DNA from: Saccostrea cucullata
Taxonomy: Eukaryota
Length of the DNA stretch: 64,000 bases
Direction: 5' to 3'
NCBI RefSeq assembly: GCF_032062105.1
Contig: NW_026925150.1
Location: 655-64,654, forward strand
A program made the position numbers and the translations under genes. Under the pieces are notes generated by a model. The model saw nothing but the letters and a program-made list of their open reading frames with translations. It did no database searches and was not told where the DNA came from. Positions 27,419 through 28,467 of this stretch are shown here, piece after piece. Position 1 is the first letter of the stretch, and each line of letters starts with the position of its first letter.

Positions 27419-28467
27419 GGGGTACAGCTGATTTTAGCGCTCATGAAGTTGGCCAGGATGAGAAATTGACAGAGCTCTATCGTGCCAGTGGTGGACCGTA
27501 TGGAGGTATATACGTTGATGAAAAGTATTTGCAGATATATGATGTTATTTTTGGAAAAGGGACGCTTGAAAAGCTCAAAATAGAGGATATGGAAGAATAT
27601 TTGACTCTCCTTAGAGAATTTGAAAACAAAAAACGCTCAATTACTCAAGAGTTTAAGACTTCTTTCGTAACTAAGCTTTCAGTGGTATTGAACGAAAAAA
27701 GTTCTAAAGAGAAGAATATGAAAGCTCTTCAGTCCTCCTATTTAAGAGATCAGGTAGCATTTGTAAAAGATAAATTAAAAATTTCCGCCAGGTTGATGAA
27801 GAGTTTCTTTGAGGAGTCACTAAATGAAATCATCAAACATGTTCGGAACATTTTAGACACTATTCCAAACATTGAGCACATTCTCATTGTTGGTGGATAT
27901 GGGGAATGTAGTTTGCTACAAGAAATGTTCAAAATGGAATTTTCTCATACAAACATCGTTATTCCCAATGAATGCAGCTTAGCTGTTATTAAAGGAGCAC
28001 TGTTATTCGGACATAATCCTTTGATTATATCTTCAAGAATTTTACGCTACTCATATGGAATAGCAATTGATCCAAAATTTAATCACGAGGATCATCCATT
28101 AGAAAATCGATACATTGACGAAGACGGAGTTGAAAGATGTCGAAATGTATTTCTACAACTGATTTCCAAAAACACAATAGTTCCCTCGACTGGAGTGAAA
28201 GTTACCAAGCAAGCTAAAACTATGACCCTTGCACAGAGTCAAATTTCGTTGAAATTATAATGCACGGAATTAATGGAAGAGTCAATGATAATAAACGATG
28301 AAAGGTTTCTATTCCTTGGAAAATTAACTATAAATGGTCCGAAACATATCAAAAACAAGTGGTATATAGATTATAGTTATATTTTTGGTATGACTGAAAT
28401 TAAAGTGTCGGCAAGAGTTTTGGAAACTGGAGAAGTAAAGAATGATTCTTTCGATCTGCTTGAATGA
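27419..28467 (+). CDS. HSPA12-like gene A, exon 4 (terminal), carrying an in-frame TAA at 28258..28260
   Basis: Acceptor 'ttctttcag|gg'. ORFs 27466..28260 and 28273..28467 are in the same frame: '(G)GTADFSAHEV...ELYRASGGPYGGIYVDEKYL...ILIVGGYGECSLLQEMF...NIVIPNECSLAVIKGALLFGHNP...SLKL*CTELMEES...IFGMTEIKVSARVLETGEVKNDSFDLLE*'. Gene B has 'LRLYCTEK' at the same place, so the TAA replaces a Tyr codon. Confidence 0.75.

Follow-up and report, generated by a model that had tools for sequence, protein, structure and literature searches.

An HSPA12-like gene and its neighbouring copies

The 64,000-nucleotide stretch of the Saccostrea cucullata genome analysed here (the window, in whose coordinates all positions are given) carries an HSPA12-like gene, gene A, whose last coding exon is interrupted by a premature TAA, together with the HSPA12-like copies B, C and D. 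Gene A lies on the plus strand and comprises four coding exons, whose boundaries follow from the sequence itself and from comparison with the Saccostrea echinata protein XP_061169392.1 (P0001) and its genomic locus (L001, GCA_033153115.1). Exon 1 (20615-20917; 303 nt, 101 codons) opens with an ATG and is followed by a GT donor at 20918, exon 2 (26315-26533; 219 nt) has its AG acceptor and GT donor intact, and exon 3 (26774-26924; 151 nt) ends in phase 1; the S. echinata counterparts measure 303, 219 and 151 nt, respectively. The last exon, 27419-28467, has 1049 nt including the normal TGA terminator at 28465-28467, against 1043 nt in S. echinata. An earlier reading of the sequence alone (hereafter the sequence-only reading) had placed its start at 27419, and the CAG acceptor at 27416-27418, in phase 1, bears this out. 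All three introns are canonical GT-AG introns, and the conceptual spliced coding sequence of 1722 nt yields 573 codons and a stop. Intron 1 measures 5.4 kb, compared with 9.4 kb in S. echinata.

Homology to HSPA12A/B-like proteins extends over the full length of gene A, which identifies it as an HSPA12-like atypical Hsp70. Exons 1-3 are 72-87% identical to the S. echinata protein, with tblastn identities of 84% for exon 1 (to residues 1-105) and 87% at the amino-acid level for exon 3 (to residues 173-225). When the last exon, with its stop replaced by Y, was used as the query of a protein search, the same protein was the best database match (70% identity, 100% coverage, E=1.1e-157), and the matches were oyster proteins named ‘heat shock 70 kDa protein 12A-like’ from Saccostrea and Crassostrea; this homology search returned no match to exon 4 above 70% identity and no independent S. 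cucullata copy. DNA similarity to the S. echinata locus continues through intron 2, supporting orthology of the two genes. Against the Pfam model of the Hsp70/actin-like nucleotide-binding domain (PF00012), which has a gathering cut-off of 20.6 bits, the conceptual product of gene A reaches 20.0 bits (E=2.2e-4); the orthologue, at 31.1 bits, and a further relative (P0005), at 28.8, both exceed the cut-off. At codon 15 (window positions about 20657-20659), gene A carries Phe within the stretch VAFDFGTTYSG, where Ile is found in the orthologue and in P0005 (AIDFGTTYSG); by comparison with outgroups, the Phe was assigned to the A lineage alone. The stretch is a putative phosphate-binding motif, the first in the nucleotide-binding domain.

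The other copies are fragments of last exons. Copy B (34394-35437, plus strand) is an orphan last exon with an intact acceptor and a TAA terminator, and its reading frame is clean except for a +1 frameshift caused by an extra T in ATTTTGT near 34798-34801. Copy C (14751-15580, minus strand) is a 5'-truncated last-exon relic that is missing the first ~200 nt and contains at least three frame changes as well as in-frame stops. Relic D (about 4818-5021, minus strand) is a stop-riddled last-exon fragment of ~200 nt with recognizable HSPA12-like sequence (NECSLAVIK). Sensitive tblastn with nine N-terminal queries (word size 2, E<=1) found no exons 1-3 for B or C in 28468-34393 or 15581-20614; in the window, exons 1-3 accompany gene A only, and B, C and D are all devoid of 5' exons. 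Judged from these lesions, the locus is a decaying HSPA12-like cluster in which B, C and D are already dead fragments.

The RefSeq protein XP_062606366.1 (P0010; S. cucullata, 386 aa) can be rebuilt at 386 of 386 residues from 26423-26533, 26774-26924, 34394-34659 and 34805-35434, which identifies the window as part of the S. cucullata assembly annotated by NCBI. It is a chimera in which exons 2-3 of gene A are joined to the last exon of copy B and the exon with the TAA is skipped. The model starts at an internal Met and omits exon 1 of gene A, and the NCBI pipeline did not model exon 4 as coding. Within copy B it introduces an ‘intron’ at 34660-34804 (plus strand) that bypasses the frameshift; its length of 145 nt is not a multiple of three and exactly compensates the shifted frame, and it is most likely an annotation device. 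As a fusion of what appear to be two disabled loci, the model ought to be left out when family surveys count HSPA12 genes.

The premature TAA and the sequence beyond it

Read in one frame, 27421-28470 encodes HSPA12-like sequence throughout and is broken by one internal stop only, which separates KTMTLAQSQISLKL from CTELMEESMIINDERFLFLGKL before the frame closes with SFDLLE and its terminator. This TAA (28258-28260, plus strand) occupies codon 505 of 573 in place of a conserved Tyr, leaving gene A short of a complete open reading frame with a full C-terminal beta domain. According to the sequence-only reading, the open reading frames 27466-28260 and 28273-28467 share a frame and are continuous in homology across the TAA; we confirm both points, as one tblastn alignment with the S. 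echinata protein runs from 27412 to 28464 with no gap at the stop (E=2.4e-163), and continuity is therefore far beyond chance. The same reading held that a single substitution suffices. Indeed, the orthologue has TAC at this codon and copies B and C have TAT, so that one third-position transversion is enough to give TAA. In a family alignment of 49 sequences (gene A, copy B and 47 database matches), the 48 sequences other than gene A show Y in 40 cases, F in 2, I and V in 1 each and a gap in 4 at this column; that is, Tyr is present in 40 of the 44 members aligned there without a gap.

The stop would remove 69 residues, as had been estimated, namely Tyr505 and the 68 codons at 28261-28464 (plus strand). 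These codons keep their frame and contain no second stop, and every one of the 11 columns with a family conservation of 80% or more is retained (22 of 23 when scored by residue group). The only indel in the tail is an in-frame 6-nt insertion specific to gene A, which lies somewhere in 28270-28295, its placement being ambiguous. The sequence-only reading had described the tail as conserved in all three copies. The copies are not of equal standing, as B and C are disabled orphan last exons.

The tail has diverged unevenly between the two oyster genes. With changes polarised by six outgroup proteins, the amino-acid changes unique to gene A and to its S. echinata orthologue stand at 24:20 upstream of the stop and at 11:1 downstream of it. 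Branch dN, estimated by least squares with three outgroup coding sequences (copy B and the sequences L002 and L003), gives 0.085-0.088 for gene A and 0.072-0.076 for the orthologue upstream, compared with 0.25-0.30 and 0.05-0.10, respectively, downstream; the bootstrap confidence interval of the downstream difference excludes 0 with every outgroup. Polarised changes in the gene A tail amount to N19:S3. The C-terminal strands of gene A have evolved about three times faster than those of the orthologue, and the body of the gene has not. An excess dN of 0.15-0.25 is too large to post-date the stop; most of it dates from a time when the tail was translated and its variable positions were less strongly, or differently, constrained. 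We also considered, and rejected, conversion of the tail by a different paralogue: among the comparisons listed, which cover only part of the S. cucullata paralogues, the orthologue shows the smallest amino-acid difference to the tail, 45% against 52-64% for seven others.

The position of the stop in the fold can be read from a structure of the orthologue predicted with AlphaFold2 (AF2) from 27 aligned sequences (mean pLDDT 87.7, pTM 0.84), in which an Hsp70-type nucleotide-binding domain precedes a C-terminal domain built of beta strands only, which spans residues 428-571 or thereabouts. In this model Tyr505 falls within the strand 499-507, and four strands follow it (520-528, 539-545, 549-556 and 562-568). 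Full-length DnaK/BiP can be superposed on this model (E about 2e-23, TM about 0.6), and the C-terminal domain therefore corresponds to the beta sandwich of the Hsp70 substrate-binding domain (SBD-beta) without the helical lid. The orthologue thus resembles canonical Hsp70 in its pairing of a nucleotide-binding domain with SBD-beta, and the stop would fall in the SBD-beta-like sandwich; it differs from DnaK/BiP in the absence of the lid and in an identity of only 15-18%. A cut at residue 505 is predicted to take away about a third of the sandwich, with misfolding or loss of function the likely outcome.

The fate of the transcript is a separate matter. Junction-dependent nonsense-mediated decay (NMD) needs an exon junction downstream of the stop, so that premature stops in last exons escape it. 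As the TAA lies in the last exon, removal of gene A mRNA by this route would be unexpected, and NMD could act at most through the length of the 3' untranslated region, which would grow by 207 nt. The transcript test for NMD put forward with the sequence-only reading is for this gene weakly founded.

Age and origin of the stop

Comparison of gene A with its orthologue by the Nei-Gojobori method (NG86) gives dS=0.66 and an overall omega of 0.22, with regional values of 0.12 for exons 1-3 and, within exon 4, of 0.23 upstream and 0.42 downstream of the stop. Gene A has been under long-term purifying selection. Two other neutral yardsticks for the same pair are four-fold sites (0.51) and intron 2 (0.26). 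In a simulation of neutral substitutions on the tail, with the ratio of indels to substitutions set to that of intron 2, where 48 mismatches are accompanied by 9 gap events, we scored the joint probability that the tail keeps its frame, acquires no second stop and retains 11 of 11 conserved residues. This probability is 0.33 at a neutral divergence of d=0.02 and falls to 0.058 at d=0.05, 0.005 at d=0.10 and <0.001 at d=0.20. Because preservation of the tail is improbable at the larger divergences, the stop is young, at roughly d<=0.05 or a minor fraction of the history of the A lineage after it separated from its S. echinata counterpart. Zero age, which includes sequencing error, is equally compatible with these data, there being one lesion and no detectable relaxation upstream. 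Across gene A as a whole we see neither relaxed constraint nor further lesions: the lesion count is one, and the upstream branch dN is about that of the orthologue. Both observations fit a very young lesion, at an age at which the status of a pseudogene would still be invisible in the sequence.

We consider it probable, on the evidence of these sequence comparisons, that the TAA is a genuine young nonsense mutation in a structurally complete gene A. In the proposed course of events, a change from TAY to TAA at Tyr505, either fixed or present as a segregating null allele in the sequenced haplotype, would end translation partway through a beta strand of the Hsp70-SBD-beta-like domain at the C terminus. 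Half of strand 499-507 and the last four strands would be lost, leaving a product that is probably misfolded or non-functional, while the mRNA would be expected to persist, its last-exon stop not triggering junction-dependent NMD. The TAA would then represent the first step of pseudogenisation in a tandem cluster that evolves by birth and death. Gene A has the make-up of an unprocessed pseudogene or null allele, with one nonsense codon in an otherwise homologous gene and three introns retained; for gene A, ‘pseudogene’ is a prediction and not a demonstrated state. Much of what the sequence-only reading proposed about the cause stands, including the single TAY-to-TAA change, its place in the last exon, the loss of C-terminal beta strands and the youth of the stop. 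Its use of B and C as comparators does not, for neither is intact, and it included neither the acceleration of the tail before the stop nor the RefSeq chimera.

That only one base separates gene A from an intact gene also suits a base-call or consensus error, in which case the true codon would be TAT or TAC and gene A an ordinary functional HSPA12-like gene. The remainder of the gene is intact, the tail keeps its frame with 11 of 11 conserved residues, and the age estimate is compatible with zero. However, substitution errors that happen to create a stop should be rare, since only ~5% of random substitutions do so and the per-base error rate is low over these 1.7 kb, and the exon lengths, compared with those of the orthologue, reveal no indel error in the same 1.7 kb, so that the local consensus appears good. 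The neighbouring copies carry independent disabling lesions, which indicates that real decay is common at this locus and raises the prior that the stop in gene A is real; the lineage-specific acceleration of the tail, moreover, fits weakened constraint there. A literature search found no description of the sequencing technology behind the S. cucullata assembly. Weighing these points, we infer that the stop is real and regard a consensus error as unlikely. The acceleration downstream of the stop could alternatively be taken as a sign of an older, tolerated or even useful truncation, with selection acting on a 504-residue product (the nucleotide-binding domain and part of the beta domain) and the untranslated tail left to drift. 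Gene A is accelerated only beyond the stop (11:1 against 24:20; dN 0.25-0.30 against 0.05-0.10), the tail shows N19:S3, and the 6-nt indel specific to gene A lies just past the stop. Yet a dN excess of 0.15-0.25 would need d of about 0.15-0.25, at which the chance of preservation is <0.001; the acceleration spares conserved columns, as expected of a tail that was still translated while it diverged; and the cut lies within a beta strand of a compact domain. We rejected this reading as the main explanation, since neither the frame nor the conserved residues would have survived the neutral time that it needs, and we hold it to be very unlikely.

The stop might instead be bypassed, whether by readthrough of the UAA, by A-to-I editing of UAA to UGG, by an internal intron or by use of copy B as an alternative last exon. 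The tail is a clean open reading frame with conserved residues, as a bypass would demand, and copy B offers a good acceptor 6 kb downstream on the same strand, to which the NCBI model joins exon 3 of gene A. Copy B is frameshifted, however, and an A-B transcript is open only if the 145-nt segment is removed, which has the look of a modelling device. An intron that removes the TAA was rejected: all 146 in-frame GT...AG candidates delete conserved strands, and the exon is continuous in homologues. Where the acceptor contexts of candidates spanning the TAA were inspected, they were purine-rich and contained no polypyrimidine tract. Readthrough is disfavoured by the context UAA-UGC-ACG, which to our knowledge matches no readthrough motif, and recoding by a standard genetic code. 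An alternative code with TAA as Tyr was rejected, given that gene A elsewhere uses 17 TAT and 9 TAC codons for Tyr (26 in all) against one TAA, and that TAA terminates B, C and the oyster transcript L002 at the corresponding end. Taken together, bypass of the stop by any of these routes seems highly improbable. Near-cognate decoding of UAA is reported to insert Tyr, Gln or Lys. We give only a very slim chance to the idea that tRNA-Tyr decodes the UAA in this way to yield a low level of full-length protein, or that the 504-residue product is a selected isoform; were the former true, it would restore the ancestral residue and explain both the kept frame and the strongly conserved residues of the 68 codons.

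The cluster in the context of bivalve HSPA12 families

In bivalves, the HSPA12 genes have expanded in tandem, turn over rapidly and vary in presence and absence (PMC11268181, PMC10939072, bioRxiv 10.1101/2020.09.15.298695). Magallana gigas has 89 HSPA12 genes among its 113 HSP70 genes, with 68 tandem duplicates (PMC11268181), and in Tegillarca granosa 50 of 65 HSP70 genes belong to HSPA12 (PMC10939072). HSP70-12 genes are also found in hemizygous regions of bivalve genomes that vary in presence and absence and turn over fast (bioRxiv 10.1101/2020.09.15.298695), and according to one of these studies the ATPase domain of HSPA12 proteins is atypical and a classical substrate-binding function is absent (PMC10939072). 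Gene A resembles these expansions in its family, its four-exon structure (as in XP_061169392.1), its clustering with paralogues and the transposon debris nearby. It differs in its premature stop and in its neighbours, which are not complete genes but fragments of orphan last exons. The surveys of the bivalve HSPA12 family consulted here give gene counts and make no mention of pseudogenes, and a literature search on HSPA12 pseudogenes in oyster returned nothing.

Our preferred reading, a young nonsense mutation, also agrees well with what is seen in young unprocessed pseudogenes and segregating loss-of-function alleles. Like these, gene A keeps its introns, carries a single disabling substitution without further decay, adjoins older dead relatives and belongs to a family of rapid turnover; in contrast to a typical young pseudogene, it shows no measurable relaxation upstream, and its loss of function is predicted only. 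No new mechanism is needed, for a dead or dying copy with one hit is expected in a fast-turnover family. The biological weight of the mutation is small in the same sense, as a tandemly expanded stress-gene family is expected to yield such copies. Of wider use may be the locus as a whole, which forms a graded series of decay from one lesion, through a frameshift with loss of 5' exons and then heavy decay, to a small fragment. Given population data, such a series could serve to calibrate the turnover of pseudogenes in oyster HSPA12 clusters.

Several other features of the window accompany the cluster. An ORF at 33215-33691 (plus strand), between gene A and copy B, contains a DUF3504 domain (E=2.2e-14), which presumably derives from a Crypton-type tyrosine-recombinase element. 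On the minus strand, ORFs at 42274-42975 (E=3.5e-16) and 49209-49661 (E=2.9e-5) match the C-terminal and N-terminal parts, respectively, of the Pfam XK-related family (PF09815) and are probably two exons of one gene for an XK-related membrane protein. Just downstream of the gene A stop codon, 28845-28957 and 29092-29202 are direct repeats with 89% identity, and perfect inverted matches of 36-37 nt occur at 28861-28897, 29107-29142 and 29201-29237; together these repeats 3' of gene A resemble a MITE-like insertion. Satellite-like tandem arrays with a period of about 162-168 bp lie at 5279-6039, 38455-39522, 53425-54406 and 56934-58113, and the array at 38.4-39.9 kb resembles sequence within the first intron of the orthologous S. 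echinata gene (L001 11136-12405). The segments 43136-43383 and 44366-44732, ~15 kb downstream of gene A, are 67-74% similar to the start of the same intron (L001 10384-11036), a similarity that reflects either a dispersed repeat or a rearrangement. Finally, a 21-bp tandem repeat at 11475-12188 (~34 copies) produces artefactual long ORFs on both strands, with translations such as YKRFIKS and NRLYDLI.
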